Assembly: GCA_034005005.1 (NCBI GenBank)
Contig: JAVEVO010000002.1
Span: 4,389-68,388 of the forward strand
Reading direction: 5' to 3'
Length of the DNA: 64,000 nucleotides
Origin: Myxococcota bacterium
Lineage (GTDB): Bacteria; Myxococcota_A; JAVEVO01
Shown: positions 5,867-25,322 of the stretch, in pieces
Layout: the number at the start of each line of letters is the position of its first letter
Position numbering within the stretch: the first letter of the stretch is position 1
Position numbers and translations under genes: made by a program
The notes under the pieces: model-generated
Seen by the model: only the letters and a program-made list of their open reading frames with translations
What the model was told of the DNA's origin: nothing
The model's database searches: none

Positions 5867-7990
5867 ATGGGCAGACCAGGCAACCCGTCGAATTCGCTCG
5901 CTGTCGATGCCCTGACCCGGGAGACGGGGGCCGCACGCCCGCGGCCCGCGGAACCCCCGCGGCCACCGGCGCCGCGGCCCGCCAGGCCGGCCCCGGGCGA
6001 GATCCTCGTCGAGGAGCCCGACCCGGAGGCCGCGGCCCCGGGGCTGCTGTACGCCCGGCACGCCGACTATGCGCGGCGGCTGGCCCAGGCGCTCGCCGCC
6101 CGCTGGCGGCTCGATCCCTTCACCGGCGAGGAGGCGGAGGACGCCGCGCTCGAGGGGCTGCTCGACGCCGCCCAGCTCTGGCAAGACCGCAGCCACACGG
6201 CCCGCTTCACCACCTACGCCTACTGGCACATCCGTGGCAGCATCCTCGGTCGCCTCGCCGAGGTCCGGCGCCGCGTCTCCCTCGACGCCGGTCCGGGGTC
6301 GCCGCGCGGGCGCGGCTGGGCCACGGGCGCTCCCCTGCCGGCGCCGGGCGAGGTCCCCTTCCCCGGGGATCCAGAGGAGCAGGCCGCGCGCCGCGTCTGG
6401 CCGCACGTCGAGGCGGAGCTGAACCTCCTGCGCAGCCGGCAGCGGGTGGCGAGCCTGGTCGTGGAGCTGCGGGAGGCCGGCCGCCTCTCCCCCGTGGAGG
6501 AGCGGATCGTCGGGCCCCTGTTCCTGGAGCAGCAGGAGCTCCCGGAGGTCGCCGCGGCCACGGGGCTCGACCCGCCACGGATCCGCGCCGCGGCGCTGCG
6601 CCTGCTGCAGCGGCTCCGGACGGCCTTGCGCGACGACTCGCTGCTCCCCGAAGGCTGCTGCCGGCTCCCGCTCGAGGAGCTGCCGACCGGACGAGCGGAG
6701 GGACTGCAGATCGCCCGGGAGACCTTGCAGCTCTTGCGCGCGGAGCGGCGAGCCGGCGGGGCGCCGCCCGTCACCCGCCCCCTGGCGAGCTTCTTGCGCC
6801 TGCTCCCCGACATCGAGGCCGTGGCCCGCCGCACCGGGGTCTCGGCCCAGCTCGGCGCCGGCGACACCCCCTGCGCGCGGGTCGCCTCGTTCTACCGCCG
6901 GATCCTCGGGCTGGGACGCGCCGAGCTGGCCGGCGAGCTGGAGATGAAGGGGCCCGCGCTGGACAAGCTGCTCCGCCAGCTCAACCTCGACGCCCGCCAG
7001 TCGACGAGGCGCATCCTGCGGATGGCCAACGCCCTGGCCATCGACCCCGAGCAGCTCCTCTTCCGGGCGTCGCCCCGGCTCGGCGAGGCCTTCGACCGGG
7101 TGCTCTACGCCGGCGAAGACGTCTACCTCGCCCTGCTCACGGTCCCGCTCCCGCCGGCCGAGCTGCTCCCGATCCTGCGGGCGGGCGCCGATCCCGGCGG
7201 GGGCCCGGACATGGGCTCCCTGATCGCCGGCTACCGGCTGGCCCGCGGCATCCCCTCGGCCGCCAGCCTGGGCCGGTACTACAAGGGTTTCGAGGCCGGC
7301 GAGGCCACCGCCATCGAGGGCTGCCTGGCCATGGCGCGGCAGATCGGGATGCCACCCTTGCTGGCCCTGCTCGGCACTCGCCCGGAGCTGCTGGCGCTGT
7401 TCGACCTGCTCGACGGGGAGGGGACCCTGCTCCACGCGAGCGAGCGTGACTATGGTCGCATCTATCTGGTCCTAGAGTACCAAAAAATGCCCGGATCACG
7501 GGACCTGCCCCCGGCCGAAGCGCCCACGCAGCCGGATCTGGCCGCCTACCTGCGGTACCTCCTGGGGCGTTGCGAGCTGCTCTTGACCCCCGAGCGCCTG
7601 GCTGCGGCCGGGATCAACCCCCTGCTCCTCGCCCACGGCCTCGCCGGCCGCGCCCCCCACCAGCCCGAGGCGCTGCGGCCCCTCGCCGAGCTCCTCGCGC
7701 TGGACCCGATCGCCGAGGCTCGGCTCTGCTGCGAGGCCCTGTACCCACGCACCGGCCCCGAGGAGCAGGCCACGATCCGGGAGCTGTGCCGGCTCGCGCA
7801 CGCGCAGACCACGCTCTGCCAGCACCTGGCGACCCACGGCTGGGAGGATCTGAGCCTCCTGCTGACCGCCGACCCGGACGCGACCCGCCAGCTCACCCAC
7901 GAGTTCTACGGACGCTCCCGCCGGGGCCACCGGGGCTACCTGCGGGAGCTGCTCCTCCTGTGGCGAGGCGCAGCCGCCGAGTGGGGCTGA
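5867..7990 (+). CDS. Sigma-70/ECF-family sigma factor-like protein with a roughly 450-aa C-terminal extension (707 aa)
   Basis: Region-2-like segment (…DAAQLWQDRSHTARFTTYAYWHIRGSILGRL…) and region-4 HTH (…SPVEERIVGPLFLEQQELPEVAAATGLDPPRIRAAALRLLQRLRTAL). A long C-terminal domain follows with no recognisable family. The N-terminus is Pro/Arg-rich. Confidence 0.5.
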   Translation: MGRPGNPSNSLAVDALTRETGAARPRPAEPPRPPAPRPARPAPGEILVEEPDPEAAAPGLLYARHADYARRLAQALAARWRLDPFTGEEAEDAALEGLLDAAQLWQDRSHTARFTTYAYWHIRGSILGRLAEVRRRVSLDAGPGSPRGRGWATGAPLPAPGEVPFPGDPEEQAARRVWPHVEAELNLLRSRQRVASLVVELREAGRLSPVEERIVGPLFLEQQELPEVAAATGLDPPRIRAAALRLLQRLRTALRDDSLLPEGCCRLPLEELPTGRAEGLQIARETLQLLRAERRAGGAPPVTRPLASFLRLLPDIEAVARRTGVSAQLGAGDTPCARVASFYRRILGLGRAELAGELEMKGPALDKLLRQLNLDARQSTRRILRMANALAIDPEQLLFRASPRLGEAFDRVLYAGEDVYLALLTVPLPPAELLPILRAGADPGGGPDMGSLIAGYRLARGIPSAASLGRYYKGFEAGEATAIEGCLAMARQIGMPPLLALLGTRPELLALFDLLDGEGTLLHASERDYGRIYLVLEYQKMPGSRDLPPAEAPTQPDLAAYLRYLLGRCELLLTPERLAAAGINPLLLAHGLAGRAPHQPEALRPLAELLALDPIAEARLCCEALYPRTGPEEQATIRELCRLAHAQTTLCQHLATHGWEDLSLLLTADPDATRQLTHEFYGRSRRGHRGYLRELLLLWRGAAAEWG

Positions 7991-8053: not shown

Positions 8054-10348
8054 TCACCGCTCGTCGTCCTCGTCCTGGTCCTCGTCCTGGTCCTCGTCCT
8101 CCTGGTCCTCCTCTTGATCCTCCTCCTCCACACCATCTGGTTCGTCCACCTGCCAGGAGCGATCGACCAGCTTGCCCATGGCTTCGTACTCGATGACCGC
8201 GGACTGCCAGATCAGCTCCTGGCCGACCTCGCTCGCCCCCGCGGCAGAGGCCATCACCGCGGCGCGCAAGGCGCTGTTCTTGATGTGGCCACCGCTCATC
8301 TCGAAGGCCTCGGCGAGCTCGTCCCAGTCCACATCCCGCGCGAGCGGCGCCTCCGCGGGGAAGGCCAGCGCCCAGAGCCGGCGTCGCTGAGACCGGCTGG
8401 GCGCCCGGAACGAGATGCGGAACTTGATGCGCCGGCGGAAGGCCTCGTCGATCACCTCGCCATGGTTGGTGGTCAAGACGGCGACACCGCCGAACTGCTC
8501 GAACAACTGGAGCAGGTGGTTGACCTCCAGGTTGGCGTAGCGGTCCACGGAGCTCCGGACCTCGGTGCGCTTCGTGAACAGGCTGTCCGCTTCATCGAAC
8601 AGGATCACGGAGGGCACGTCCTGGGCGGCCGCGAAGAGCCGGGAGAGGTTCTTCTCGGTCTCACCGACGTACTTGTCGACGAGGGAGGAGAGGTCCACCC
8701 GGTACAGATCCAGCCCGAGCTCGCGCGCGATGACCGAGGCCACCATGGTCTTCCCCGTCCCGGGCGGCCCCTCGAACAACGCGGTGAGCCCTTTACCATA
8801 GGGGAACTTCCGCCCGAACCCCCATTGTTCGAAGACGCGACGCTGATGACGAGCGAAGTGGACGATCTCCTCGAGGCGAGCGCGGGTCTCGACGGGCAGC
8901 ACGACGTCGGGCCAGCCGAACCCCGTCGCGATGCGCTGGGCGATCTTCCCCAGGCGCTCCCCGAGGCGCTGCTGGCACTCCCGCTCGAGCAGCGCGGGCA
9001 GGCCTTCCGGGGAGCCCTCGGCGAGCCGCTCGACCGCTTGCGCCGCGGCCAGACGGATGTCGCCCCCGGAGAGGGCGTAGCGCGCGCCGAGATCCATCCC
9101 GTCGACGCTCGTGGTCAGCCTGGAGTCGAGGAACCGACTCCAGAGCAGCGCGCGCTCAGGGGCCGACGGCAGCGGCAGGCCGAAGCGGAGCAGCCGCGCC
9201 CCGGCCAGTTCGAGCCCCAACCAGTCCGCCCGTTCGAGGCTACGCACGAAGACGGACGCGTCTGCCCGTTGCACCAGCTCGGTCAAACGAACGGCCAATC
9301 CCGGGGCCAGCCCCTCCCGGTCCGGTGGCGGCGCCGACGGCGCGTCGAGCAGCAGCATCGCCCCGTGCAGCCGAGCTTCGCGCAGCAGGGCCGCGAGCCT
9401 CCCCACGGCCTCCTCCGGCGCGGCGAGCAGCGGCGCCAGGTCGGCCTGCAGGAGCCGCTGGCCCCGGCGCGCGGCCAGCCAGCGCCCAGCGCTGCGACGC
9501 CCCGTCCCGCATGGCCCGTAGAGATTGCACCAGGCTGGTGCGCCAGCCTGACCGAGCTGCCCGCCGAGACGGGCCAGCTCAGCCAGCAGCTCGGCGCCGA
9601 GCACGAGCGGCTCGGATGGGTCGGGCAGCGGCAGCAGGCGGGCCTGCAGCTCGGGGGCAACTCCCACGGAGCCGGTGCCACCGAGCAGGAGCGAGGCGAT
9701 CCGACCGGAGAGGTGGAGCTGACGACCACGCAGGGGCAGGTCGCGGGCCCCCTCGTCCTCGAGGTGGACGAGACCGTGGACCACCAAGGGAGAGCCGGGC
9801 GCGAGCCGCCGGAGCACATCGCGAGCGCCCGGGGGGCTGCCGCCGAGGAGATCGGCCAGGAAACCGGCGGTGGGGAGCTTGCGGCCGAAGTCGTTCCAGG
9901 CGAAGCACCAGGCCCGCTCAAAACGGGAGTCGGAGGCTGGCGCGAGCAGCGCCAGGAGGATCCAGCGATCGAGTGGCTCGAGGGGAAACCGGTCGATCAA
10001 GCGATTGAAGGGTAGCTCCACTCCCTCGACGGCGCTGGAGATCAGCCGACGGTCCAGCTCGAGCCGGGAGGCCTTGAGGCGGTCCTCGAGCTCGGGCTCG
10101 GGCAGGTCGATGACGGGAGGCGCATGGAGCAGCCGCCCCACCTCGCGCCCAGGAACGTAGAGGCCGCGGCTGTCCTCGCCCGGCTGGTGGTGCGCTGCCA
10201 GGTAACGGACCAGCAGCAGCCGGGCCCACCCCAGCTCCGCGTCGAGGTGTGCGGTCGCGTCGCGAAAGGGGGCGTCCGAGGCGACGTCCACGCGCACCAC
10301 GGCTCCGGCAGACTCGTCAAGCTCGGCTCGGTCCTCACGGTTTGACAA
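8054..10348 (-). CDS. AAA+ ATPase with a degenerate N-terminal AAA domain and a canonical C-terminal AAA domain (Afp15/Pvc15-like loader-type ATPase), acidic DE-repeat C-terminal tail
   Basis: Canonical Walker A (GPPGTGKT), Walker B ([11 protein letters not shown]) and sensor/arginine-finger region ([15 protein letters not shown]) near the C-terminus. A degenerate first P-loop ([13 protein letters not shown]) lies upstream. The tail is [24 protein letters not shown]. Proposed TTG start at 10348 with GGAG 5 nt upstream. The 5' part of ORF 8054..14413 (above about 10350) is antisense to the real + gene and is not counted. Confidence 0.8.
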
Positions 10349-10408
10349 CTCGGCTCCGGCTGCTAGGGTGAAATCCCTAATACCATTGCAGAGCCGCAGG
10401 AGTCGACA
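10349..10408. promoter_or_regulatory. 60-bp divergent intergenic region between the AAA ATPase and DUF4157 genes; AT-rich core with a TAGGG-N6-CCCTA palindrome
   Basis: tagggtgaaatcccta (10364-10379) followed by the AT-rich taataccattgcagagc. Both divergent start codons (TTG 10348 on the minus strand, GTG 10409 on the plus strand) flank it. Confidence 0.35.
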
Positions 10409-13400
10409 GTGGCGAACCCGACCCACATGCACCAGGTCAGTCGTGTGGCCAGCGGCCGGACCGTGAGCCGCCAGGTCGACTCCGGGGGGGCGATGCAGGC
10501 ACCGGTCGGCGGCGCCAAGGTCGCGCTGCACCGGGGCGATCCCGGAGTGCAGCGACAGGTGGCCCGCCAGCTCCAGGCGGAGCAAGGAAACGCCGCGGTG
10601 GCCCGGCTGGCCCAGGAGCACGAAGGTGAGCCCGACGGAGGCGCCGAACCGCTGTCCGTGGACGCGGCGTTCGCCCTGGCCACGTCCGGCCGCTCGTCCC
10701 GCCTCCCCTTCGCGGCCGAGCTCGGTCCCAAGCTGGGCCTGGACCTCTCCCGGGTGAAGGCCTACCTCGGGGGCCCCGAGGCCGAAGCCGGGCTGGCGGC
10801 GCTCGGTGCCGAGGCCGCGGCCCACGGCGACCAGGTCGCGTTCCGCATGGCATCCCCCTCCAAGGAGCTCGTCGCGCACGAGGCGACCCACATCGCCCAG
10901 CAGGGAGGCAAGCCGGGCGCGACCTCCGGCTTGACCGTCAGCCAGCCCGGAGACGCCCTCGAACGTCAGGCCGAGAGCACCGGCCGCGACCTGGCCGCGG
11001 GCAAGACCCCCACCGGCGGGAAGGACGACCAGGCAGCCGCCGGCTCCTCGCTGGCCCGCGCGCCGGGCCCCGCGGACCCGATCCCGGTCCAGATCGACAC
11101 GGCCCTCGCGGCCACGCCGCTCAAGGCGGGAGCGGTCTACAAGCTGATCTTCCACAAGGATTTCGCGCTGGCCGATCGCACGATCCTGGGCCAGGACGCG
11201 ACCAAGATGGCCAAGATCGCCGCGGCCTTCGCGGCGGACGGCAGCAACATGGCCAAGGCCGCCATCCGGCTCGCCTGCACGCTGGCCGACGTCATCAAGT
11301 GGTGCATGGCCGCCAACCAGGCGAGCAAGCTCGCGGAGAAGCACTTCCAGAACCGCTTCGCCGGGGCCACCGCCGACGAGATCGTCGGCCTGCTCGCCAA
11401 CACCGAGGCGCTGACCGCCTTGATCAACGGCCAGAAGACCGCCAGCCCCATCAAGGCGGCGAGCATGGTGGCGGCCCCCGACAAAACCAAGGCCCTCCTG
11501 ACCGACCCCACCGGCCGGAGCTGGGCGCTGGGGGTCCACGGTGGGCTGCGCAACGTCTTCAAGGCGATGGTCCAGGCCCAGAAGGACGCGATCAAGGCCG
11601 ACGCGCCCACCCTGGCAGCGCTGCTGGCGACGCCCGAGGCCGCGACCGAAGACCTCGCCCAGATGCTCAAGAACCTGGGCTACAAGCCCCTCGAGGCGAT
11701 CCCCCTGCTGCAGACGGCCAACAGCCTGGTCAAGCTCGGCATGCCGCCCTACCCGGCCTGGTTCTGCAAGGAGGTGACGCGCGCCGACCTCGAGCCCTTC
11801 TTCGCGGCGCCGGAGTTCGAGACGCTCAAGAGCTCGGCCGGGCCCGCGATCAAGCCCCTGGAGATCGAGAGCCTGAAGAAGAGCCCAGGTGACTTTGGTA
11901 CCTTGCTCGGCGCGCAGCCCAAGTTCAAGGAATGGATCCTGCAAGCGGAGGGCTGGCCCCCGCTGCTCGAGGCCGTCGCCAAGCGGCTGGACGCGGCGAT
12001 GTACAGCGGGCTCCTCGCGGGCAGCGAGTGGCCGACCCTGGTGCAGGACCTGTATCTCCAGAAGAAGTCGGGAGACACCAAGGACGCCGAGGAGGTCGTG
12101 GCCAAGCTCAAGAAGGTCATGCCCCCGGAACACCAGGAGAACCTGGCGCTGCTCCTGGGGCTGCACGAGCTGAAAGACAAGATCGACGAGGCCGTCGCCG
12201 AGGCGGCGAAGCCGCCGGGGGGCCCGGAGGCCGGCGCCGATGGCGAGGCCAAGGCGCTGACGCCAGCCGAGGCGCTGGAGGCGCAGCTCGCGAAACCGGC
12301 TCCACCACCCAAGGAGCTGCTGGCTGCGGTGCTGGCGCTGCCCGAGGCCGATCGGACGACCCTGGCGGCCGACGACGCGAAGATGTCCAAGATCGCCGCC
12401 CTGCTCGGTCGCGGTGGCCAGGACGTGGTCAAACTGGCGATCGATCTGAAGGCCGCGCTCGACCAGATCGTCCGGTGGGTGCAGGCCGCGGGCCAGGCGG
12501 CCAAGCTCGGCAACAAGCCCTTCGTCGCCCGCGTCCACGACCAGGCCACCGACGTCGAGGTCACCGCCTTCGTCGACAAGCCCGAGCTGCAGACGCTCAT
12601 CGCCGCAGCGGGCAAGGCGGTCAAGCCGCTGGCGATCAAGGACCTCACCGGGAGCACGGCGAAGATGGGCGCGCTGCTCGGGGCCAAGGCCGCGTTCCGC
12701 ACCTGGGCGGTGACGGTCCAGACCTGGGGCGCGCTGCTCGACTACCTGGCCAAGCAGACCGACGCCACCCTGGCCGCGGCGCTGATCGCGGGAGCCGAGT
12801 GGAACAACCTCGTCCAGGACATCGAGCAGCAACGGACCGCCGGTGACCAGACCAAGGCCCGCAAGGCGCTCGACGCGCTCTTCGCAGCGACCCCGGACGG
12901 CAACCTCAACGAGCTGCAGCAGCTCTTCCAGGCCCGCTTCGGCATCTCCGTGACCTCGGCCCAGGCGGCCAATCCGGCGAACACCAAGGCGATGACCGAA
13001 GGCGATGGCCAGCATGAGCGAGCCTGGGACGCACCCGCCCTCCGGCGAGTCTACGATTCCTACAAGAAGCTGCCGCCAGGCCAGGTGGAATCGGGGAAGA
13101 CCGAGGTCGCGACCAGCTACGTCACCTACGATCCGGTCTGTCCGGCCTGCGGCAACGACAACTCCAAGGACGCTGCCGGAAACAAAGTCGGGCAATGGGG
13201 GCCCAACTGCTCCGGCGGAGCTGCCCCATGCGGCGCGGCCCTCGACGTGACCAACAACTGGAGCGGCTTCGCCTACAACGCCACCCCGCACCTGTCCATC
13301 CAGTACGACGATCAGGACATCGCCAAGGACGAGACCGGGGGGTACACGGACAACGCCAAGGACCTGCGCCGCAACACCAAGCTGCTGGACTACACCGCGC

Positions 13401-14086
13401 TGCACGAGCTGGGCCATCGCGTCGATGAGGGACGAAAGTACACCAACAAGGACCAGACCTTCCTGGACCTGGCCGGGTGGAAGGCCTACCCCGTCGGGAA
13501 CGCGGGGGGAGGGGCGGATCTCGCCAAGAAGCTGCGGGACAAGATGGGTGCCCCCTACGGGGGAGGCGCGCTGACCGACCCCGAGAAGGCGCTCGTGGTG
13601 GACGGTGCAGCCAACGCCCTGGCCGCGGCGACTCGCCCGAAGATCGTGGACGATCTGAAACCTCACCTCCAGGCGGCGTACACCGCCAAGTACGGCGGCC
13701 TGGCCGCGGGGATGGATGGCAGCAAGGCCTACCGCGAGTTCGACAACGTCGCCGGCACGGGGCTGTGGAGCGCGGCCAAGACGTCGAACCTCTACGTGCA
13801 GGTCGCAGCCGGCAACGAGGCCAACTCCCCCTGGTACACGGGGGAGCCCTTCGGGAGATTGAACAAGGGACTCCAGTTCCACGAAGGGTACGGGTACGAG
13901 GGCTGCTGGTGGGCCTACAAGACGACGGCGTGGAGCACGAAGATCAGCCTCTATCAGTTCCGCTGCCCAGCCGACCACTTTGCAGAGCTCTACGCACTCT
14001 GGTGGGTCACTGCGACACCAGGAGATAAAGTCAAAGGCAAGGCCCGGGACTGGTTCAAGTCCAAGAACCTCCACAAGGACGGCTGA
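10409..14086 (+). CDS. DUF4157 (PVC/eCIS-associated zincin, HExxH) domain protein, 1225 aa, with internal duplication and a C-terminal second HExxH putative toxin domain
   Basis: AGGAG RBS, then GTG 10409. The DUF4157 signature is …SGRSSRLPFAAELGPKLGLDLSRVKAYLGG…GDQVAFRMASPSKELVAHEATHIAQQ. Two roughly 330-aa Ala/Lys-rich helical repeats follow (…DATKMAKIAAAFAADG… and …DDAKMSKIAALLGRGG…). The C-terminal Cys-containing domain carries HELGHRVDEG. Confidence 0.8.
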   Translation: MANPTHMHQVSRVASGRTVSRQVDSGGAMQAPVGGAKVALHRGDPGVQRQVARQLQAEQGNAAVARLAQEHEGEPDGGAEPLSVDAAFALATSGRSSRLPFAAELGPKLGLDLSRVKAYLGGPEAEAGLAALGAEAAAHGDQVAFRMASPSKELVAHEATHIAQQGGKPGATSGLTVSQPGDALERQAESTGRDLAAGKTPTGGKDDQAAAGSSLARAPGPADPIPVQIDTALAATPLKAGAVYKLIFHKDFALADRTILGQDATKMAKIAAAFAADGSNMAKAAIRLACTLADVIKWCMAANQASKLAEKHFQNRFAGATADEIVGLLANTEALTALINGQKTASPIKAASMVAAPDKTKALLTDPTGRSWALGVHGGLRNVFKAMVQAQKDAIKADAPTLAALLATPEAATEDLAQMLKNLGYKPLEAIPLLQTANSLVKLGMPPYPAWFCKEVTRADLEPFFAAPEFETLKSSAGPAIKPLEIESLKKSPGDFGTLLGAQPKFKEWILQAEGWPPLLEAVAKRLDAAMYSGLLAGSEWPTLVQDLYLQKKSGDTKDAEEVVAKLKKVMPPEHQENLALLLGLHELKDKIDEAVAEAAKPPGGPEAGADGEAKALTPAEALEAQLAKPAPPPKELLAAVLALPEADRTTLAADDAKMSKIAALLGRGGQDVVKLAIDLKAALDQIVRWVQAAGQAAKLGNKPFVARVHDQATDVEVTAFVDKPELQTLIAAAGKAVKPLAIKDLTGSTAKMGALLGAKAAFRTWAVTVQTWGALLDYLAKQTDATLAAALIAGAEWNNLVQDIEQQRTAGDQTKARKALDALFAATPDGNLNELQQLFQARFGISVTSAQAANPANTKAMTEGDGQHERAWDAPALRRVYDSYKKLPPGQVESGKTEVATSYVTYDPVCPACGNDNSKDAAGNKVGQWGPNCSGGAAPCGAALDVTNNWSGFAYNATPHLSIQYDDQDIAKDETGGYTDNAKDLRRNTKLLDYTALHELGHRVDEGRKYTNKDQTFLDLAGWKAYPVGNAGGGADLAKKLRDKMGAPYGGGALTDPEKALVVDGAANALAAATRPKIVDDLKPHLQAAYTAKYGGLAAGMDGSKAYREFDNVAGTGLWSAAKTSNLYVQVAAGNEANSPWYTGEPFGRLNKGLQFHEGYGYEGCWWAYKTTAWSTKISLYQFRCPADHFAELYALWWVTATPGDKVKGKARDWFKSKNLHKDG

Positions 14087-14087
14087 C

Positions 14088-14774
14088 GTGACGGTGCGCC
14101 GAGCTCGAACCTCGAGCTGGTCCTTGCTGACCGCAGCCTGGGCCTTGCTGGCGAGCGCCTGCAATCCCGAGGGCGTCCGGGCCGAGCCCCCCGCCTCTGG
14201 AACCCCTCCGGCCGCTCCGCGCCCGGCCGACCTGCAACCAACCCCGGAGAAGCCCATGGACCCCCGCGCCGCTCTCGAGCAACAGATCCGCCAGGCCCGC
14301 CCGGGCGCCGCCTTCACCGTGACCGAGGTCCCCTTCGGCGTGGCGGGCTGGTCCTTCTTCGACGTCACCTTCACCCCGACCGCCACGGCCATGGACCGGA
14401 GCGCCGACCGCACGGCCTACACGCTGCGCGCCGACGGCAGCGTGGTCGCGGGAGACCGACGGCCGGAGCTGGGACGGATCCTCGGCCGGGCCGGCGCGCT
14501 GGAGCCGGGAGCCGGAGGGCGCACACCCCGACAGCTCGCCGAGCTCGTCCTTCACGTGCTGGGGCGGCCGGAGAGCCCGCTCGACGGACCGGGAAGGGAT
14601 CCGCAGAGCCCGCAGGGGCACGCCGCGCCCCCCTTGCTCGAGGCGACTGCCCAGGGGGTCCAGCTCCGCTTCTTCACCCTGCAGGCCGGTGCCATGGTAC
14701 CGGAAGTCGTCCGCTACCAGATCGATCTCTCACGGGATCTCACCCTGACCATGGAGCGCCGCGCGCTCCGCTGA
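14088..14774 (+). CDS. Small lipoprotein immediately downstream of the DUF4157 protein (candidate immunity/partner protein)
   Basis: GTG at 14088 lies 2 nt after the upstream TGA. Signal peptide and lipobox (…SWSLLTAAWALLASAC). No recognisable family. The earlier part of ORF 13980..14774 overlaps the upstream gene and is excluded. Confidence 0.5.
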   Translation: MTVRRARTSSWSLLTAAWALLASACNPEGVRAEPPASGTPPAAPRPADLQPTPEKPMDPRAALEQQIRQARPGAAFTVTEVPFGVAGWSFFDVTFTPTATAMDRSADRTAYTLRADGSVVAGDRRPELGRILGRAGALEPGAGGRTPRQLAELVLHVLGRPESPLDGPGRDPQSPQGHAAPPLLEATAQGVQLRFFTLQAGAMVPEVVRYQIDLSRDLTLTMERRALR

Positions 14775-14787
14775 CAAGGGTTCCAAC

Positions 14788-15369
14788 GTGACCACCGAGG
14801 ACCCGGACCTGCCCGAGCGCGCAGACCTGGAACAGGGCCTGAAGTACCTGCACCTCGTCGGCGAATCGCTGCGCAACGAGCTGGTGGCCGAAGGGGGACT
14901 CCTCTACGCCCTGGTGGACCTGCTGATCGCCAAGGGAATGATCCGCACGGTCGAGCTGGAGCAGCCGCGGGCAGAGGCCGCGGCCCGGGTGCAGCAGACC
15001 CTCGCGGCCATCCCGTCCCTGGCCTTCGGGCCGCTGGTCGACAAGTACGCCTTGGTCGTGGCCGGCCCCAGCGACTGCCTGGCGCGGCTGCCCGTGTGCC
15101 GGGGCGCCTGCTGCCGGCTGCCCCGCTGCCTGTCGGTCCAGGACCTGCAGGAGGGCGGGCTGCGGTGGGACTACTTCGCCCCCTACCTCCTCGGTCGCAC
15201 GCCGGACGGTCGCTGTCTGCATCAAGACGCACACCACCGCTGCACGGTCTACGACCGGCGGCCGGCCGCGTGCCGGAGCTACGACTGCCGCACCGACGGC
15301 CGCATCTGGCTGGACTTCGACCGCTGGCTGGTCCACCCGGACGTGGAGCAGCTCGGACGGCCCCGCTGA
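14788..15369 (+). CDS. YkgJ-family Fe-S/zinc-cluster protein (CxxCxxCC domain)
   Basis: …LPVCRGACCRLPRCLSV…CLHQDAHHRCTVYDRRPAACRSYDCR… matches the PF03692/UPF0153 cysteine pattern. Confidence 0.65.
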   Translation: MTTEDPDLPERADLEQGLKYLHLVGESLRNELVAEGGLLYALVDLLIAKGMIRTVELEQPRAEAAARVQQTLAAIPSLAFGPLVDKYALVVAGPSDCLARLPVCRGACCRLPRCLSVQDLQEGGLRWDYFAPYLLGRTPDGRCLHQDAHHRCTVYDRRPAACRSYDCRTDGRIWLDFDRWLVHPDVEQLGRPR

Positions 15370-15619
15370 CGGCAGGGGGACCACACGCGGCGGCCGCTGC
15401 TCGCGGGTTCGGCCGCAATCCGGCCCTGTCCCCCGATGACCGGGCGACGGCCAGAGCAGGCCGGTCGGCAGCAGAGCTGGCCAGGACACCCCCGAGCGCG
15501 CAGACCGGCCTCCGGATCGCGGCACGACCGGACGCTGGCCCCCTCACCTGCAGGAGCCAGCATTCGGTGCCTGCCCCACCGCCCCTTGCCAGGACCACGC
15601 CCGGGGGCTACTCTGCCCC

Positions 15620-15712
15620 CCGTCTGTAGGGGTGTCCCGACTACACGGTCGGGGCTGAGATCACACCCTCGGAACCTGACCCGGGTCATGCCGGCGTAGG
15701 GAACGGACGAGC
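15620..15712 (+). promoter_or_regulatory. TPP (thiamin pyrophosphate, THI-box) riboswitch
   Basis: ctgtaggggtgtccc…ggggctgagatcacaccctcggaacctgacccgggtcatgccggcgtagggaacgg matches the conserved THI-element core (AGGGGUGyCC…GCUGAGA…ACCCU..GAACCUGAyCCGGGUmAUGCCGGCGUAGGGAA). A downstream cctcctcc (15731-15738) can pair with the SD ggagg at 15766-15770. Confidence 0.8.
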
Positions 15713-15769
15713 GCAGCCCTCCCCCCGAGGCCTCCTCCAGGTATCCCCCGCGGCCGGACCCTGCCGGAG

Positions 15770-18373
15770 GTGATCGTGGATTTCGCGCACACGCTCTTTC
15801 CCACCGCACGCGCCCTGGCCCGCACCCGGAGCCGCCGATCGGTCGCCTGGGGCCTCGCCTCACTGCTGTTGCTCGCCGGGAACCCCGCGCCAGCCCGCCC
15901 CCTGGCCGGCGTCGTGCGCTGCGCGCAGACGGGCCAGCCCATCGCGGACGCCACGGTGCAGGTGGAGGGTGGTGACGGCCGGGCCCGGACCGCGGCCGAC
16001 GGGCAGTTCACCCTGGAGGTGCCGGAAAACGAGGCGCTGCGCCTCTCCGCGGCCGCGCCCGGCTTCTTGCCGGCCTGGTCCCCGGCCCTGCCCCCCGACT
16101 TCACCGGCCCCCTGGAGCTCCGGCTCCCGCCGCAGCCCACCGACCCGCTGTTCGCCACCGTCGTCACCGCGACCCGGGCGACCAGCGGGCGCACCCCCGC
16201 GACCTTCACCAACCTCGACGCGGCCGAGCTGCAGCAGCGGAGCTGGGGCCAGGACCTCCCTATCCTCCTCGAGAGCCAGCCGGGCGTCTTCGCGACCTCG
16301 GACGCGGGCAACGGCATCGGCTATACGACCCTGCAGCTCCGGGGCTTCGACGCCCGCCGGGTGGGGGTCCAGATCGACGGGGTGCCCCTGAACGACCCCG
16401 CGGAGCAGCTCGTCTACTGGGTCGACGTCCCGGACCTCGCGTCCTCCCTGCAGGACGTCCAGGTGCAGCGAGGGATCGGCTTTGCCGGCACCAGCCACTT
16501 CGGCGGCACCATCAACCTGGTCACCGACGACGCGGCCCTGACGCGCCGCTTCGAGCTGACCACCGGCCTCGGCAGCTTCGGCACCTTCCGCAACGCCCTG
16601 CGCCTCGGCTCGGGGCTCGTCGACAACAAGTACTCGATCTCCGGGCGCTTCTCCCGCGTGGTCTCCGACGGCTACCGGGAGCGCAGCGGCAGCGAGCTCT
16701 GGGGGTACTTCCTGACCGCCCGCCGCTTCGGCCCGAGCTGGTCTCTGCGGCTCACCACCTTCGGCGGACAGGAGCAGACCCGGCTGGCCTTCAACGGCAC
16801 GCCCGCGTCCCTGCTGGCGGCGGGCGAGCGGCGCCTGAACCTCGACGACTACTACGCCGCACCGGACAGCCCGGCCAACACCTACCCAAAGAGCCTCGAC
16901 CACTTCCAGCAGCCCCACACCCAGCTCAGCGTGGAGTGGCGCCCCTTGCCCGAGCTGGAGCTGCGCACGACCTTGTACGTGATCCAGGGGCGCGGCTGGT
17001 ACCAAGGTTACAAGGCCGACCGGGACCTGGCCGACTTCGGCTTTCCGGACAGCGATGCGGAGTCGGACCTGATCCGCCGCAAGCACGTCGCGAAGCTCGA
17101 GCTCGGCACGGTCGGCCAGGCCGCCTGGCGGCGGGAGGCCCTCGGGCTGACCCTCGGCTGGAGCCTCGACTGGCTGAGCTCGGACCACTGGGGCGAGCTG
17201 CTCTGGATCGCGGCCCCCCCCGCCCAGGACGGCTGGCCCGATGACTACTACCGCTACACCGAGGAGAAGACGACCCTGTCGACCTACCTCGACGCGGAGT
17301 ACCGGCTGCTCTCCAGCCTGCGCCTGCTCGGCGAGCTGCAGCTCCGCCACGGCAGCTTCGCGTTCCGGCACGCGGACGCCGGCAGCTTCGGCCCGGCCGA
17401 GCGCTACGAATTCACGGACGCGCGCACCCTGCTCAACCCCAAGCTCGGCCTCCTGTACGACCTCGTGCCCCGGCCGGCCGCCGCCGGGGGCGGGAGCGCG
17501 CCGGCCGCCGCCACGACCCTCCGGCAGGGCGAGCTGTACCTGCTCGTCGGCAAGAGCGGCCGGGAGCCGGCGGCCGACGACTACTGGGACGCGTGGCAGG
17601 GCCCGGACGATCGCGGGGCCGCGCCCCTCTTCCGGACCTTCACCGCCAACGAGGAGCGGGTCCAGGCCACCGGCTCCCGGCTGAACACGGAGACCTTGCT
17701 CGACGTCGAGCTCGGCAGCCGCTGGTCCCTTCGTCCCGATCTTCCCGGCCTGCGCTCGCTGAGTGCAACCTTGGCCCTGTACTGGATGGACTTCCGCAAC
17801 GAGATCCTCACCGCGGGCGGCGTGGACGACGATGGCAACCCCGTGAAGGGCAACGCCAAGCGCTCGATCCACCGGGGCCTCGAGGGCAGCTTGCGGCTGA
17901 TGCCGTGGCGCGGGCTGGCCCTCACCGGCAACCTGACCCTGGCCGACAACGTCGCGGTGGACCTGATCCAGCGGACCTGGGACGAGGAGGGCCAGGTGGT
18001 GCAGCTCGACCGCGGGGGCAACCCCCTCCCGGGCACACCCGTGACCCTCGCCAACCTCGGGCTCGCCTGGTCCGTCGGCCCCGCCACCCTGGAGCTCACG
18101 GGCAGCCACACCGGGCGACGCTACCTCGACCTGAGCGGCTTGGCCGAGCGCAGCCTCGACCCCTACTTCCTGCTGCACGCCGGGGCCCGGCTCGAGCTGG
18201 AGCGGCGGCTCGGGCTGGAGCGGCTGCAGCTCGCCCTGACCGTGCGCAACCTGCTGGACACCCCCCACGAGACCCACGGCTGGTGGGACGAGTGGTACGG
18301 CGACGGCGGGGAGGCGATCCTCTTCCCCGGCGCGCCCCGGCAGGTGCACCTGAGCCTGACCCTCGGGCTTTAG
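15770..18373 (+). CDS. TonB-dependent outer-membrane receptor with N-terminal carboxypeptidase-regulatory-like domain
   Basis: Signal peptide, then a CarbopepD_reg-like segment (VRCAQTGQPIADATVQVEGGDGRARTAADGQFTLEVP). The plug domain reads …QDLPILLESQPGV…GYTTLQLRGFDARRVGVQIDGVPLND…. A long beta-barrel follows. The GTG at 15776 may be the true start (GGAGG 5 nt upstream). Confidence 0.85.
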   Translation: MIVDFAHTLFPTARALARTRSRRSVAWGLASLLLLAGNPAPARPLAGVVRCAQTGQPIADATVQVEGGDGRARTAADGQFTLEVPENEALRLSAAAPGFLPAWSPALPPDFTGPLELRLPPQPTDPLFATVVTATRATSGRTPATFTNLDAAELQQRSWGQDLPILLESQPGVFATSDAGNGIGYTTLQLRGFDARRVGVQIDGVPLNDPAEQLVYWVDVPDLASSLQDVQVQRGIGFAGTSHFGGTINLVTDDAALTRRFELTTGLGSFGTFRNALRLGSGLVDNKYSISGRFSRVVSDGYRERSGSELWGYFLTARRFGPSWSLRLTTFGGQEQTRLAFNGTPASLLAAGERRLNLDDYYAAPDSPANTYPKSLDHFQQPHTQLSVEWRPLPELELRTTLYVIQGRGWYQGYKADRDLADFGFPDSDAESDLIRRKHVAKLELGTVGQAAWRREALGLTLGWSLDWLSSDHWGELLWIAAPPAQDGWPDDYYRYTEEKTTLSTYLDAEYRLLSSLRLLGELQLRHGSFAFRHADAGSFGPAERYEFTDARTLLNPKLGLLYDLVPRPAAAGGGSAPAAATTLRQGELYLLVGKSGREPAADDYWDAWQGPDDRGAAPLFRTFTANEERVQATGSRLNTETLLDVELGSRWSLRPDLPGLRSLSATLALYWMDFRNEILTAGGVDDDGNPVKGNAKRSIHRGLEGSLRLMPWRGLALTGNLTLADNVAVDLIQRTWDEEGQVVQLDRGGNPLPGTPVTLANLGLAWSVGPATLELTGSHTGRRYLDLSGLAERSLDPYFLLHAGARLELERRLGLERLQLALTVRNLLDTPHETHGWWDEWYGDGGEAILFPGAPRQVHLSLTLGL

Positions 18374-21149: not shown

Positions 21150-21677
21150 TCAGGTCCACTGCTTGCGCAGGGAGTAGGCCAGCAGGTACCCGCCGGCGAA
21201 CACCGCGAACATGAACGCGAAGCTACCGACCGAGAGCACCGCGCCGCCGCTGAGAGCCTGGCCCGAGGTGCAGCCCCGGGCGAGCCGGGCGCCGTAGCCC
21301 ATCAGGGCGCCGCCGACCAACGCGAGGAGGAGGCGGGTCCCGGCCTGGACCCGCGGGCCTCGCCGCAGCTCGAGCTTGAAGCGCCGGTTGAAGAGGCCGC
21401 TCAAGGCCCCGCCCAGCATGGTGCCGAAGAGCATGAAGACCGAGCTGTGATCGAAGGGGTTGCGGCTGCCGCCCGCGGTCTCCGCGAGGCCCGCGACCCG
21501 GTCGACGTGGTCCGGCGCGGCCAGGGCGACCAGACCCGACTGCACCCGGCTGATCGCGCCCGAGGCGCCCAGCCCGCCGCCCGTGACGAAGAAGGCTAGA
21601 AAGAGCACGACGCCCAGCAGACAGCCTCCCAGGTAGGGGTTCAGGTAGGGTCGCGGCCCCCTGGCGTCGTCAGACAT
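21150..21677 (-). CDS. YeeE/YedE-family membrane protein (second half-transporter)
   Basis: …YGARLARGCTSGQALSGGAVLS… is the Sulf_transp motif. ATG 21677 (MSDDARGP) with AGGAGG 6 nt upstream is preferred over the GTG at 21692. Confidence 0.75.
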   Translation of the reverse strand: MSDDARGPRPYLNPYLGGCLLGVVLFLAFFVTGGGLGASGAISRVQSGLVALAAPDHVDRVAGLAETAGGSRNPFDHSSVFMLFGTMLGGALSGLFNRRFKLELRRGPRVQAGTRLLLALVGGALMGYGARLARGCTSGQALSGGAVLSVGSFAFMFAVFAGGYLLAYSLRKQWT

Positions 21678-23907
21678 CACCGCCTCCTTCACCGGGCGCG
21701 GGCCCTTCGTCGAGGATGTCGTAGCCCGTGATCATCGCCCGCAGGTTGCTGCCGAGGGTGTGCCCGGTGGTGATCAGGTACAGGTGCGCCACCACGAAGG
21801 CCAGCAAGGCCCAGGAACCGAGGTTGTGCAAGGGTGCGATCAGGTACAGCCCGGGCAGGTCGACGGCCAGCCCCGGCTGGCGGCCGGTCAGCCAGATCAG
21901 GATCCCCGTGACCACCTGGAAGGGGATCAACACGTTGAGCAGCATCAGGTAGGTCACCTGCTGCAAGGGGTTGAGGTGGCGCTGCGGGGTGCGGGGCAGC
22001 GGATGGGGCGCGCCCACGAAGATGCCGTGGAGATAGAAACGGGCCTGGCTCAGGACATCCCGGAACAGGGTCGGCCCCCGCGGGATGAACTGCCGGATGT
22101 CGGTGGTGACGAGGTGGTAGAACAGGCTGAGCACCGCATTGACGATCAGCACCAGGGCGAGGGCGTTGTGCAGCCGCACCGCGTGGGCGAACCCGAGCAA
22201 CGGGAAGCAGTCGACGAAGTGCACCTCGAGGCCCGTGAGGAGCAACAGCACGATGCTCGCCGCCATCAACCAGTGCCACAGCCGCTGGTAGCGGGTGTAC
22301 AGGTAGACCTGCCGGTTGGGCCCGTGAGTTGCCGGACGACGTCGCCGGGTCACGAAGCGCACCAGGCCGTGCACGAAGATGCCGGCGAAGGCGAGGAGGA
22401 ACAGGCCGAAGCCGGTCCGATCGGACCAGCCCTCCCGGCTGTGCCCGAAGATGTAGACCGTCGCCGTGGCCGGCGGCTCGTAGACCAGCTCACGGGCTGG
22501 ACCTGGCAGCAGACGCCCCCCGGCGAGGGGCCCCGTGGAGGGGAGCTCCAAGCGCAGACCCGGAGGGAGGGCCCCGACCAGGGGGATGGGCAGCGCCAGG
22601 CGGCCCTGCTCCCCGTGGCAGCGACCGCAGGCCATGGTCGCGCCGGCCCGCTCCTGGGTGCCATGGTGCAGGCCGTGGGCCTCGACGCTGCCAGTCAGCC
22701 GCGGCTGCGTGACCCCCTGCTGCCGGAGCAAGTCTGCGACCAGCGCGACCTTGGCCTCCGTGTCGAGGTGCTGCTCCGGCGCGGCCAGGCGCCCGTCGTG
22801 ATCGGTGTCGAGCTGGGCCAGGAGTGCAGGCTTGTAGCGCCCGCGCTCCAGCAGGGCCGCGGCGAGGGTCGTCAACGGCACGTCCCCGCCGCTGGCCGCA
22901 TCCTGCCAGCCGAGCAGCGTGACCAGGTTGAAGGGCCGCCAGCGAGGATCCCCGCCATGGGCCGAAGGGACGGGGAGCAAGGCGGGCGAGAAGGGCGAGG
23001 TGAGGCGGACGTTGGGGGAGACGCCCGGGTCCAGGGGCTGGTTGTGATAGGTCACCAGCGCACTGCCGGTCTCCATGACCAAGGTCGCATCGATCACCGC
23101 AACCGTAGGACCAAAGCTCTCGGGGGCATGGCAGGTCGAGCAGGCGACCCGCTCGAAGTGACGCTTGGGGTAGGGCAGCTCGGGGTGGACGGCCAGGGGC
23201 TCGTGGCAGCTCGTGCAGGGGGCGGCGCCGAGCCGGTGGTCGGGCCGCACCAGGTAGCTGCCGAGGCTCACCTGACGGGGATCCCGCTTCAGATGCGGTA
23301 GGCCGGCCCCCGGACGTGAGCGGGCCGGGTGGTTGGCCGACCGGTGGCAGTCGGTGCAGGTGAGCAAGCGGGCCGCGTGGATGTCGAAGGGCCGGTCGAG
23401 GCCATCCTTGCCCACCAGGTTGAGGTGGCTGGCGGCCATCTGCTGGGAGGAATAGACCACGCCGCTGGCCTTGGTCAGCGAGTGGTGGTCCTCGATGAGG
23501 GCCGTCGGCGTCCAGTCGTAGTCCTCGGGGAGTGCGAGGGGCCAGGGATCGGTGTGCACCAGGCCGTGACAGCGACCACAGCGGCTCGTGGTGGGTGCGG
23601 AGAGGTCGATCTCTTCCCGCACGAGCCGCCCTTGCTCGTCGAGCTGCTTTTCGCCGATGTCCCAGGGCTGGTCACGGTGGCAGACGGAGCACTCGAGACC
23701 AGGATGGCTGTTGTGTTGCTCGATGTACGCGACGTCGTGGCACTGGCTGCAGGTCGCGGCCTCCGAGAAGACCCCGCCCTGCTCGAGGAGGGACCCGCCC
23801 TCCTCGTTGCGCGCCACGAAGGTGGGGTGCAGGGGGTTGGGCGCGGCGAGGGCCAACGACGGCAGCAGCCAGAGGAGGAGCAGAGGAAACGGGCCACGCA
23901 CGCTCAT
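21670..23907 (-). CDS. CbcL-like fusion: periplasmic multiheme c-type cytochrome (7+ CxxCH) plus C-terminal diheme cytochrome b (HydC/FdnI-like) membrane domain
   Basis: Signal peptide MSVRGPFPLLLLWLLPSLALA. CxxCH motifs: CSQCH, CSVCH, CGRCH, CTDCH, CTSCH, CSTCH, CGRCH. C-terminal cytochrome b (PF01292-like) helices with conserved His (…YTRYQRLWHWLMAASIVLLLLTGLEVHF…APLHNLGSWALLAFVVAHLYLI…). Confidence 0.8.
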   Translation of the reverse strand: MSVRGPFPLLLLWLLPSLALAAPNPLHPTFVARNEEGGSLLEQGGVFSEAATCSQCHDVAYIEQHNSHPGLECSVCHRDQPWDIGEKQLDEQGRLVREEIDLSAPTTSRCGRCHGLVHTDPWPLALPEDYDWTPTALIEDHHSLTKASGVVYSSQQMAASHLNLVGKDGLDRPFDIHAARLLTCTDCHRSANHPARSRPGAGLPHLKRDPRQVSLGSYLVRPDHRLGAAPCTSCHEPLAVHPELPYPKRHFERVACSTCHAPESFGPTVAVIDATLVMETGSALVTYHNQPLDPGVSPNVRLTSPFSPALLPVPSAHGGDPRWRPFNLVTLLGWQDAASGGDVPLTTLAAALLERGRYKPALLAQLDTDHDGRLAAPEQHLDTEAKVALVADLLRQQGVTQPRLTGSVEAHGLHHGTQERAGATMACGRCHGEQGRLALPIPLVGALPPGLRLELPSTGPLAGGRLLPGPARELVYEPPATATVYIFGHSREGWSDRTGFGLFLLAFAGIFVHGLVRFVTRRRRPATHGPNRQVYLYTRYQRLWHWLMAASIVLLLLTGLEVHFVDCFPLLGFAHAVRLHNALALVLIVNAVLSLFYHLVTTDIRQFIPRGPTLFRDVLSQARFYLHGIFVGAPHPLPRTPQRHLNPLQQVTYLMLLNVLIPFQVVTGILIWLTGRQPGLAVDLPGLYLIAPLHNLGSWALLAFVVAHLYLITTGHTLGSNLRAMITGYDILDEGPAPGEGGGDV

Positions 23908-25322
23908 CGTCTGCCTCCGACCCCGGCCGGGTCCGCGTCGTAGCCGAGGGCCGCCCAGTCCAGCCGGCCGCCAGCACCATGGCAATCGGCGCAGGCGAGG
24001 GCCTGCCCGGCCTGGCGCACCAGGTGGTTGAGGGGCCAGTACATCGCGGTGGCGACGAAGCCGTACTGCCCGCTGTACGCGAGGCCGGCCTGCTGGGCCC
24101 CCTGGCGGAGCGCGCCGTCCCAGTCGAAGGTCGTCCAGTACCCGGTCGGCCCGGTGGTCTGCGGGGTGAGCAGGTGCTCGTGCTGGAGGTCGTAGGGCTG
24201 CTTGCCGCGGTGCACCTTGAAGGGATAGATCTTCGATTTCTTGTCGCCTTTGGCGCCGAGGGGCGGATTCAGCTCAGTCGTCCTCGCGGGATCGACGGGG
24301 TCACCAGCGAGGTATCGCCCCGTGCGACCATCCCACCAGCGGTACTCGGGGACCAGGCTCTGGCCGTAAACGAACGCGCCCTTCTTCTTCTGGTACTGGT
24401 GTTCGTCCTGGGGACGCGTGCCGTCGCCGGCCTGGCTCCAGTCCCAGGCGAGCTTGGTCGGGGCGAGGTGCGCGTGGGTGGGGATGTGGCAGGTCGGGCA
24501 GGCCACCGCGGCGAGGTGGGTGTCGAGCCGGGCGTCCTGGTGCCGGTGACGCTGGTGGCAATCCTCGCACGCGAGGCTGTGGGCACGGTCGACGCTCACC
24601 GCGATGGAGCGGCCCCGGAGCGCGTGCTCCCGGCCGCCGTGGCAGTCGATGCAGAGCATCCCCTGCAGCCCCATGTGCACATCGTCCTTGGCCTGGGGAG
24701 TGGTCAGCCCCGTGTTCAGGTCACCGTGCTTCACGCCCATGCCCCCGCCGCCGAAGAAGTGGCAGACACCGCAGTTGTCGAGGCGGGGGTAGCCGACCGA
24801 GCGGGCCACAGCCCGCAGATCGGTCCCGGGGACGGGCAGCCCGGCGTCACCCTTGAGGTAGCTGCCGGACCAGTCGTGGCAGACCAGGCAGTCGACGTTC
24901 TCCTCCCTGGTGAAATCATAGCGACCGTCCCGCCAGCCGTAGCCCGCGTGGCACTTGGTGCACATCGTCTCGTTGCTGGTGATGCCGATGCAGAAGTTGT
25001 TGATCAGGTTGCGCTTGCCCACGGCGTGGATGCCGGTGCGGCCCGGGATCTCTGCTGGCGGGGCCAGCCAGGTGAAGTGGGTGCTCCCCAGCAGTTGCCG
25101 GCCGGCGTTCGGGTGGCAGCGCAGGCAGGCCCGGGTCACCTCGGGCCCCTCCTGAAACGGCTGGTCGAAGAAGGAGGAATGGTCGAGGTGGGCGCGATGC
25201 CCGGGGGTCGGGGGACGGGAGGAGGCCGTTGGCCGCCAGAGCCCCCATCCGGCCAGCAAGAGGCCCCCGGCCGCGACGAGCGCGAGCAGGGAGAGCAAGA
25301 GTCGCTTTTTCGTCAACGCCAC
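23904..25322 (-). CDS. Octaheme c-type cytochrome, tetrathionate-reductase (OTR) family-like
   Basis: Signal peptide and eight CxxCH motifs (CLRCH, CTKCH, CLVCH, CGVCH, CIDCH, CEDCH, CPTCH, CADCH). GTG start at 25322. ATGA overlap with the downstream CbcL-like gene. Confidence 0.7.
   Translation of the reverse strand: MALTKKRLLLSLLALVAAGGLLLAGWGLWRPTASSRPPTPGHRAHLDHSSFFDQPFQEGPEVTRACLRCHPNAGRQLLGSTHFTWLAPPAEIPGRTGIHAVGKRNLINNFCIGITSNETMCTKCHAGYGWRDGRYDFTREENVDCLVCHDWSGSYLKGDAGLPVPGTDLRAVARSVGYPRLDNCGVCHFFGGGGMGVKHGDLNTGLTTPQAKDDVHMGLQGMLCIDCHGGREHALRGRSIAVSVDRAHSLACEDCHQRHRHQDARLDTHLAAVACPTCHIPTHAHLAPTKLAWDWSQAGDGTRPQDEHQYQKKKGAFVYGQSLVPEYRWWDGRTGRYLAGDPVDPARTTELNPPLGAKGDKKSKIYPFKVHRGKQPYDLQHEHLLTPQTTGPTGYWTTFDWDGALRQGAQQAGLAYSGQYGFVATAMYWPLNHLVRQAGQALACADCHGAGGRLDWAALGYDADPAGVGGRR

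Follow-up and report, generated by a model that had tools for sequence, protein, structure and literature searches.

A four-gene cargo cassette of the extracellular contractile injection system type standing alone in a Myxococcota chromosome

What a loader ATPase and its putative cargo are doing on a stretch of chromosome that encodes no injection machine is the question raised by a locus in a Myxococcota bacterium (contig JAVEVO010000002.1 of assembly GCA_034005005.1). Within the 64-kb stretch that was analyzed (64,000 nucleotides, hereafter the window), an AAA+ ATPase of the Afp15/Pvc15 type, known from extracellular contractile injection systems (eCIS), is transcribed divergently from a large protein with an N-terminal DUF4157 domain (hereafter the effector), and the effector gene is followed on the same strand by genes for a lipoprotein and a cysteine-rich CxxCxxCC protein. 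The identity of this unit as an eCIS cargo cassette standing alone is secure, and it is interpreted here, with moderate confidence, as a satellite copy of an eCIS cargo-handling cassette that would serve a distant particle. DUF4157 as an eCIS marker (PMC8213781; PMC11297309), loader ATPases, and remotely encoded DUF4157 effectors are already known; new here are the four-gene unit, its CxxCxxCC member, the detached branch of ATPases, and a family of zincin toxins with a lipoprotein partner. A first-pass annotation of the window had described a two- or three-gene module, and re-reading of the open reading frames reproduced all of its sequence statements on the ATPase, the effector, the 60-bp gap between their divergent starts, and the lipoprotein; the orphan pair with its lipoprotein therefore stands, though the module has four genes and extends to position 15369, the end of the CxxCxxCC gene (Table 1).

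No match to sheath, tube, VgrG, gp25, Baseplate_J, Tail_P2_I, or Pvc16 was found in the window using Pfam and custom hidden Markov models (HMMs) of structural genes built from real eCIS loci. The window is syntenic with Joint Genome Institute (JGI) contigs from a 97%-identical relative (L088 and L090), and the 17 kb that L090 adds to the left also lack a structural gene. The absence of injection-machine genes nearby, as had been claimed, thus holds for the window and for the additional sequence, with no eCIS locus adjacent, except that the left flank measures 8 kb and not the 6 kb that had been given. In this window of ~72% G+C, the GC content of third codon positions separates real genes from shadow open reading frames, and all of the cassette genes are considered real and under purifying selection because of their GC content by codon position and a third-position-biased pattern of substitutions relative to the 97% relative (ratios of nonsynonymous to synonymous substitution rates, dN/dS, 0.1–0.4).

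As judged from alignment and motifs, the ATPase is genuinely homologous to Afp15/Pvc15, and the catalytic motifs of its second AAA domain (D2) are intact. Using BLASTP, it matches Afp15 from the Serratia entomophila plasmid pADAP with 31% identity over 618 aa (E = 1e-67), and residues 117–727 align with Afp15 residues 94–694, covering part of the N-domain, the first AAA domain (D1), and D2. The two proteins have in common a Pfam architecture of a winged-helix domain (WHD; PF22977, on which Afp15 scores 6.6e-20) and AAA. Photorhabdus Pvc15 has been described as possessing an N domain, a D1 that has Arg for Lys in Walker A and lacks the catalytic acid, and a D2 in which GTGK, DEAD, two Arg fingers, and a KY pore loop are all present (PMC11495950), and the window ATPase matches that description residue for residue. 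The Walker B position of D1 reads LLLDA, without the catalytic Glu, and D2 possesses Walker A GPPGTGKT (residues 527–534), ILFDEADS (582–589) including Walker B FDEAD (584–588), the pore loop KY (559–560), sensor-1 N628, and Arg fingers R639/R640, with the catalytic motifs of D2 forming invariant columns in the family alignment (A1). The degenerate first and canonical second AAA domain, the Afp15/Pvc15-type architecture, and the acidic C-terminal tail reported in the first-pass annotation were all borne out by the translation, the Afp15 alignment, and the Pfam pattern. While the WHD N-domain, the D1 substitution, and the catalytic D2 are the same in Afp15, Pvc15, and Alg15 (Algoriphagus), the window ATPase gene differs from all three in that it does not lie between tape-measure and tail-terminator genes, belongs to a separate, mostly Myxococcota branch detached from structural genes, and encodes a unique acidic tail, which is not present in the other family members of A1. 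The coding sequence of this tail contains imperfect repeats (6, 12, and 27 nt) and is polymorphic in length between strains, with a 6-nt indel at 8063 relative to L088 amounting to two residues. The start of the ATPase is ambiguous (TTG at 10348, with GGAG 5 nt upstream, or GTG at 10300, which would give 748 aa) because the products called elsewhere differ in length, including 766 aa (L088/L089), 749 aa (P0001), and 747 aa (L091); an exact look-up returned no record of the 764-aa product. Relative to L088, the dN/dS of the gene is 0.26.

The first-pass annotation had itself raised the possibility of a CDC48- or FtsH-type homologue with a different N-domain, and this identity was rejected because the ATPase aligns with Afp15 from the N-domain through D2 and shares with it both the WHD and AAA architecture and the degeneration of D1. 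Similarity to CDC48/VCP or FtsH in PDB and NCBIfam is limited to D2 (residues ~475–712) and falls far below the family cut-offs, neither a CDC48-type double-psi-barrel N-domain nor an FtsH M41 protease domain is among the Pfam domains of the ATPase, and CDC48/VCP and IetA resemble Afp15 to the same degree as the window ATPase. The latter observation bears on another explanation, in which the locus would be an anti-phage defence system pairing an AAA+ ATPase with a protease in the manner of IetAS. The best NCBIfam and PADLOC matches of the ATPase are indeed to IteA/IetA (118–122 bits) and the partner protein has two HExxH motifs, but the match covers only D2, reaches 122 bits where the NCBIfam cut-off is 510 bits, and is surpassed by Afp15 on the same PADLOC model (130 bits), while no IetS-type serine protease gene is present and the effector and lipoprotein have no PADLOC match. 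As Afp15 gives the same matches, an IetA/TRIP13 identity was rejected, and this pattern of matches makes a role in defence highly improbable.

The effector shares its layout with the cargo proteins Cgo1 and Cgo2 of AlgoCIS and with other DUF4157-containing eCIS-associated toxins (EATs), consisting of a leader, DUF4157 (PF13699, currently named eCIS_core in Pfam), a long linker, and a variable C-terminal domain. The claim that a DUF4157 zincin domain with HEATHIAQQ opens the 1225-aa protein was confirmed, with the motif at residues 157–165 (HEATH, residues 157–161, at 10877–10891) and with both PF13699 and AAA scoring above threshold in the HMM check. Cgo2 is 1228 aa in length, with a leader, DUF4157, and a C-terminal domain, and its disordered leader is the signal for loading via Alg15 (bioRxiv 10.64898/2026.05.27.728243); the window effector is close to Cgo2 in size and its leader matches the AlgoCIS loading leader in position. 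Between 62% and 72% of the leader are disorder-promoting residues, as a count of composition only, and the leader is the fastest-evolving part of the effector (synonymous rate, dS, 0.16; 13 of the 36 amino acid differences fall in residues 1–79), with the gene as a whole at a dN/dS of 0.20 relative to L088. The reading frame opens at a GTG with AGGAG 6 nt upstream, and no Sec signal was found in the protein. The two repeats of the middle region, though visible by eye, went undetected in a BLASTP search of the effector against itself, and four relatives (P0037, P0066, P0112, and P0113) match this region. The effector differs from the AlgoCIS cargo and other EATs in lying away from any eCIS operon in the window, in carrying a new family of zincin, and in being followed by an exported immunity-like lipoprotein.

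In the structural model, the C-terminal domain of the effector is a zincin with a lethal-factor/PPEP-like fold and an HExxH helix. The M34 gluzincins (anthrax lethal factor and PPEP-1/2/3) and MtfA (M90) are only 13–18% identical to the domain and the Foldseek matches are not significant. No Pfam match was obtained for the domain, including ATLF (PF07737), and a sequence search of PDB with the effector returned no match; amongst 77 members of the zincin family, ATLF was touched by one (5e-4) and Peptidase_Mx1 by three, all of them weak. Whereas a word-indexed search with the whole effector recovered only the 97% twin and one DUF4157 match, an exhaustive search of representatives with residues 176–1225 recovered 139 relatives, nearly all matching only the last 280–400 residues, such that the zincin domain is common to 139 proteins with differing N-terminal parts. 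Across the family, the HE of HExxH (H999 and E1000) is invariant and QFHEGY and YQFRxPxEEFAExYA are conserved. The four-cysteine insert is missing from all 37 aligned relatives and is of low confidence in the model. Fourteen of the 77 members possess an N-terminal DUF4157, most of the others are ~450 aa in length with N-termini rich in Lys, Ser, Thr, and Gln, and none of the 77 carries markers of type VI secretion systems (T6SS), type VII secretion systems, Rhs, or other secretion systems.

The small lipoprotein gene that had been noted behind the effector was recovered with a GTG at 14088, one base past the effector stop codon (14084–14086), and its predicted signal peptide and lipobox read RRARTSSWSLLTAAWALLASA followed by the lipobox cysteine (C). 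The exact 228-aa product has been recorded elsewhere (P0175), and between strains its signal peptide is unchanged (100%) while its dN/dS values lie at 0.10–0.22. The lipoprotein is probably the cognate immunity protein of the zincin domain because, in comparisons of related loci, the small protein follows the toxin domain rather than the trafficking domain and is usually exported. Homologues adjoin genes for zincin-domain proteins in L096 (E = 4e-7), L098 (E = 2e-8), and L094 (E of ~1e-3), and in the last of these the toxin belongs to the zincin family, lacks DUF4157, and is flanked by two tandem lipoproteins with weak homology to that of the window. The exception to the pairing is L124, where a CpXC protein occupies the position of the lipoprotein. 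A model of the lipoprotein built from four sequences (predicted local distance difference test score, pLDDT, 51) was too poor for comparison of folds. Tandem duplicates of immunity-like lipoproteins occur in L094 (7059–10391) and L180 (664–2144); in L094 they lie upstream of the toxin and no eCIS gene is present in the 12.7-kb contig.

The product of the fourth gene is 41–47% identical to the CxxCxxCC proteins whose genes take the equivalent place in L096 and L098. The order in L098 is effector, 227-aa immunity-like protein, 204-aa CxxCxxCC protein, and WHD-AAA ATPase, and in L096 it is effector, 180-aa immunity-like protein, and 201-aa CxxCxxCC protein, while L124 has a layout like that of the window, with the ATPase on the minus strand, a zincin-domain effector on the plus strand, the CpXC protein, and CxxCxxCC, and no structural genes. 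The same family is also found in eCIS operons, three of which, each from a different phylum (L024, L008, and L074), have a CxxCxxCC gene directly before Pvc16. A scan of metagenomes with a four-sequence CxxCxxCC alignment yielded 80 loci (L100–L179), in which a recurrent order was ATPase, CxxCxxCC, one to four DUF4157 genes, Pvc16, sheath, and tube, and structural markers were present on 18 of the 22 CxxCxxCC-carrying contigs of at least 10 kb. In L105 (7764–20487), L107, and L125, among others, CxxCxxCC is flanked by the ATPase on one side and by one to four DUF4157 genes on the other. The trio of ATPase, CxxCxxCC, and DUF4157 is a standard cassette within real eCIS loci. No paper tying the CxxCxxCC family to contractile injection systems was found among those searched.

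Table 1. Features of the cassette, with positions in the window
Feature	Positions	Strand	Basis
Afp15/Pvc15-type AAA+ ATPase, 764 aa	8054–10348	-	BLASTP, Pfam
ATPase C-terminal tail, Asp/Glu/Gln-rich	8057–8149	-	translation; Tandem Repeats Finder periods 6, 12, 27
ATPase catalytic second AAA domain (D2), residues 524–647	8408–8779	-	PF00004 AAA, 5.7e-30
ATPase degenerate Walker A of D1, GPCGTGRRS, residues 278–286, Lys to Arg	9491–9517	-	read from translation
ATPase N-domain, winged-helix variant, residues 24–223	9680–10279	-	PF22977 WHD, 2.5e-26
Divergent intergenic region, 60 bp	10349–10408	.	hypervariable between strains
Cargo/toxin protein (effector), 1225 aa: leader, DUF4157, helical repeats, C-terminal domain modelled as zincin	10409–14086	+	translation, Pfam
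Effector N-terminal leader, residues 1–100, Gly/Ala/Arg/Gln-rich	10409–10708	+	composition
Effector DUF4157/eCIS_core domain, residues 101–168	10709–10912	+	PF13699, 41.8 bits (cut-off 22)
Effector helical middle region, two related repeats (from ~residue 263 and ~residue 655) with a Pro/Gly/Ala linker between	11084–12868	+	by eye and composition scan
Effector C-terminal domain, putative zincin toxin, residues 821–1225	12869–14083	+	HELGH 13403–13417; motifs QFHEGY, YQFRxPxxxFAE
Cys-rich insert in the zincin domain, lineage-specific	13136–13231	+	four cysteines (CPAC...C...C)
Exported lipoprotein, 228 aa, lipobox Cys 14160–14162	14088–14774	+	signal peptide and lipobox
CxxCxxCC (PF03692-like) cysteine-rich protein, 193 aa, fourth cassette gene	14788–15369	+	homology and position

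Using a scan of species-representative genomes that returned at least 80 ATPase loci, the best of those listed at 39–52% identity, it was possible to place the window ATPase in a neighbour-joining tree (100 bootstrap replicates) and to count the genes around its relatives, both the tree and the counts resting on the matches listed. Most of the listed loci directly adjoin Pvc16, sheath, and tube genes. The window ATPase falls in a branch (95 of 100 replicates) drawn almost entirely from Myxococcota metagenome-assembled genomes (MAGs; Kofleriaceae, Polyangia, Haliangium, and ‘Myxococcales’), and within the available flanks a structural gene is present at one of 21 branch loci compared to 48 of 61 loci outside the branch (Fisher p = 1.6e-9). 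Among loci flanked by 5 kb or more on each side, a structural gene is present at 0 of 10 inside the branch and 32 of 35 outside it (p = 9e-8). An independent test with 21 full-length ATPases from the CxxCxxCC-derived loci added only L124 and L135 to the branch, both without structural genes. Canonical operon-embedded ATPases are also present in the Myxococcota (L018 and L034), and the branch is therefore a paralogue and not merely a relocated single copy. A DUF4157 protein is encoded next door in seven branch members (the window, L005, L006, L016, L058, L068, and L084), and L048 and L060 hold branch ATPases in stable synteny with housekeeping genes. The MAG JADMJS possesses two pairs of ATPase and DUF4157 genes, one an orphan (L006) and the other beside a CIS_tube/LysM gene and a VgrG-like gene (L058).

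Some of the orphan ATPases of the branch lie beside genes for PG_binding_1 proteins (L039 707–2224; L040 2422–4608 and 7127–9208; L010 11798–12751), one of which has a weak M15 peptidase match, and these neighbours may be alternative cargo. Large neighbours of other orphan ATPases were considered as possible carriers of a hidden DUF4157 and were rejected, being CcmF, GH57, S41 peptidase, YebC, and others. Along L058 (44–9691) the order is CIS_tube/LysM (Afp7-like), VgrG-like (Afp8-like), a MOSC protein, ATPase, DUF4157, and the housekeeping gene Tex, with no gp25 or Baseplate_J gene downstream, resembling a truncated eCIS.

These distributions allow for an autonomous system, in which the Afp15-derived branch would work independently of particles, unfolding or activating DUF4157-tagged and other toxins that leave the cell via lysis, vesicles, or another secretion system. 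The coherence of the branch, its depletion in structural genes under both counts, the outcome of the independent test, its status as a paralogue of the canonical Myxococcota ATPases, and its members in stable housekeeping synteny or beside PG_binding_1 proteins are all consistent with such a system. However, the DUF4157 and CxxCxxCC families are otherwise linked to eCIS, the ATPase of the branch member L058 adjoins genes of the CIS_tube/LysM and VgrG-like kinds, the surroundings of the window cassette encode no alternative export component, and the toxin lacks a Sec signal; autonomy is considered unlikely, if worth serious consideration. A tentative and somewhat doubtful extension would have these monophyletic, mostly Myxococcota unfoldases constitute, together with DUF4157 toxins, CxxCxxCC proteins, and exported immunity proteins, a particle-free system for handling toxins.

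The interpretation as a satellite cassette is favoured because every partner family is linked to eCIS, JADMJS holds both types of pair, and there is a precedent in the archaeon Halogeometricum borinquense, where DUF4157 proteins encoded far from the contractile injection system (CIS) cluster undergo sheath-dependent secretion and one of these remote proteins has an immunity gene downstream (PMC11566945). As in the window, the remote pairs of H. borinquense consist of a DUF4157 protein with a protective gene immediately downstream and far from the CIS (PMC11566945), though an ATPase or CxxCxxCC gene of their own has not been reported for these pairs, and their CIS is cell-bound in an archaeal host. 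Comparison can also be drawn with orphan VgrG/PAAR islands of the T6SS, which like the window cassette supply a toxin and its immunity protein from a satellite locus with its own delivery helper. Such auxiliary VgrG/PAAR-effector-immunity islands are satellite loci of toxin, immunity protein, and delivery adaptor that add to the toxins of a machine encoded elsewhere and vary between strains via recombination. The helper in the window is an unfoldase ATPase instead of a spike or adaptor, and the dependence on a distant machine is, in this case, a proposal.

Several observations weigh against a satellite role. There are no eCIS structural genes across the 64 kb of the window and the additional 17 kb, no structural gene lies within up to 10 kb in 23 of the 24 members of the ATPase branch, and approximately 14 members have no DUF4157 neighbour and lie among housekeeping genes. 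The detached branch could equally mark a lineage that left the injection system. The roles given to the lipoprotein and the CxxCxxCC protein come from gene neighbourhood only. Lastly, 88% of known eCIS toxins are encoded within ten genes of the operon (PMC11297309), and the window effector falls outside this distance from eCIS core genes in both the window and L090.

If the cassette does serve a distant particle, a hexamer of the ATPase would recognize the variable N-terminal leader of the toxin, unfold the toxin, and thread it into the tube of a contractile particle encoded elsewhere in the genome. Once injected by this particle into a Gram-negative neighbour, the toxin would use its zincin domain to cleave an envelope or periplasmic target, while in the periplasm of the producer and its kin the lipoprotein would act as a shield. 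As a metal-binding helper, the CxxCxxCC protein may assist loading or maturation of the toxin, and recombination would exchange alleles of the cassette among strains that are otherwise identical.

Comparison of the window with L088 and L090 indicates where such exchange would have taken place. The flanking genes match at 100% identity across more than 15 kb, and all divergence lies at ~9.5–16.9 kb (9500–16900), where it reaches up to 11.6% per 500 nt, with a peak over the start of the ATPase gene, the 60-bp gap, and the leader of the effector; relative to L088, nothing differs apart from the cassette and the beginning of a TonB-dependent receptor gene. In the gap, 19 of the 60 positions differ while the flanking genes are identical, both of the divergent starts are preceded by sequences resembling ribosome-binding sites (GGAG/AGGAG), and a scan of the gap for a sigma-70 consensus promoter found no site. 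Amino acid changes are concentrated in ATPase residues 1–26, effector residues 1–79, and the effector linker (596–611). This mosaic is of the kind that recombination at a toxin island produces, in a hot spot of recombination or diversification, and it also shows the genes to be functional, with purifying selection extending across the divergent stretch (dN/dS 0.1–0.4). The same selection makes it improbable that the cassette is a decaying remnant, a non-functional leftover of an eCIS locus that lost its structural genes. Such a loss would fit the resemblance of the cassette to one end of real eCIS loci and the truncated appearance of L058, but the four reading frames are intact with every catalytic motif kept, each gene has a low dN/dS, the arrangement recurs in the unrelated contigs L098 and L124, and the branch of ATPases is old and diverse.

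The remainder of the window is ordinary chromosome, including genes for AsmA, a hydrolase, the TonB-dependent receptor, transporters, multihaem cytochromes, an Opp ATP-binding cassette (ABC) system, topoisomerase subunits, FeoB, GalK, and Obg. A gene at 5867–7990 ends 63 bp from the ATPase stop codon, is identical between strains, and encodes a 707-aa protein whose only match is a weak one to sigma-70 region 2/extracytoplasmic function (ECF) sigma factors at the N-terminus, leaving a long unannotated remainder. Two neighbouring multihaem cytochrome genes (21670–25322), one fused to a cytochrome b561-type membrane domain, adjoin genes for sulphur transport and rhodanese, and a 3329-aa lipoprotein (29842–39831) has a (Gly-Glu)n run, repeated modules with a cysteine content of ~11%, and a C-terminal end that resembles fibrinogen C.

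Particles of the eCIS are being engineered as programmable delivery devices, for which the choice and loading of cargo is the main open question. The ATPase, CxxCxxCC protein, and DUF4157 cargo would represent a minimal natural loading unit that has been moved as a block by evolution, and the candidate determinants of recognition are its most strain-variable parts, the N-terminus of the ATPase, the promoter region, and the leader of the cargo. The branch of machine-less loaders is a natural experiment, in which either the particle is encoded elsewhere, an arrangement useful for engineering, or an unfoldase has taken on a new job. Further, the effector appears to introduce a new family of zinc-protease toxins, whose probable immunity partner in the periplasm points to an antibacterial toxin acting on the cell envelope.

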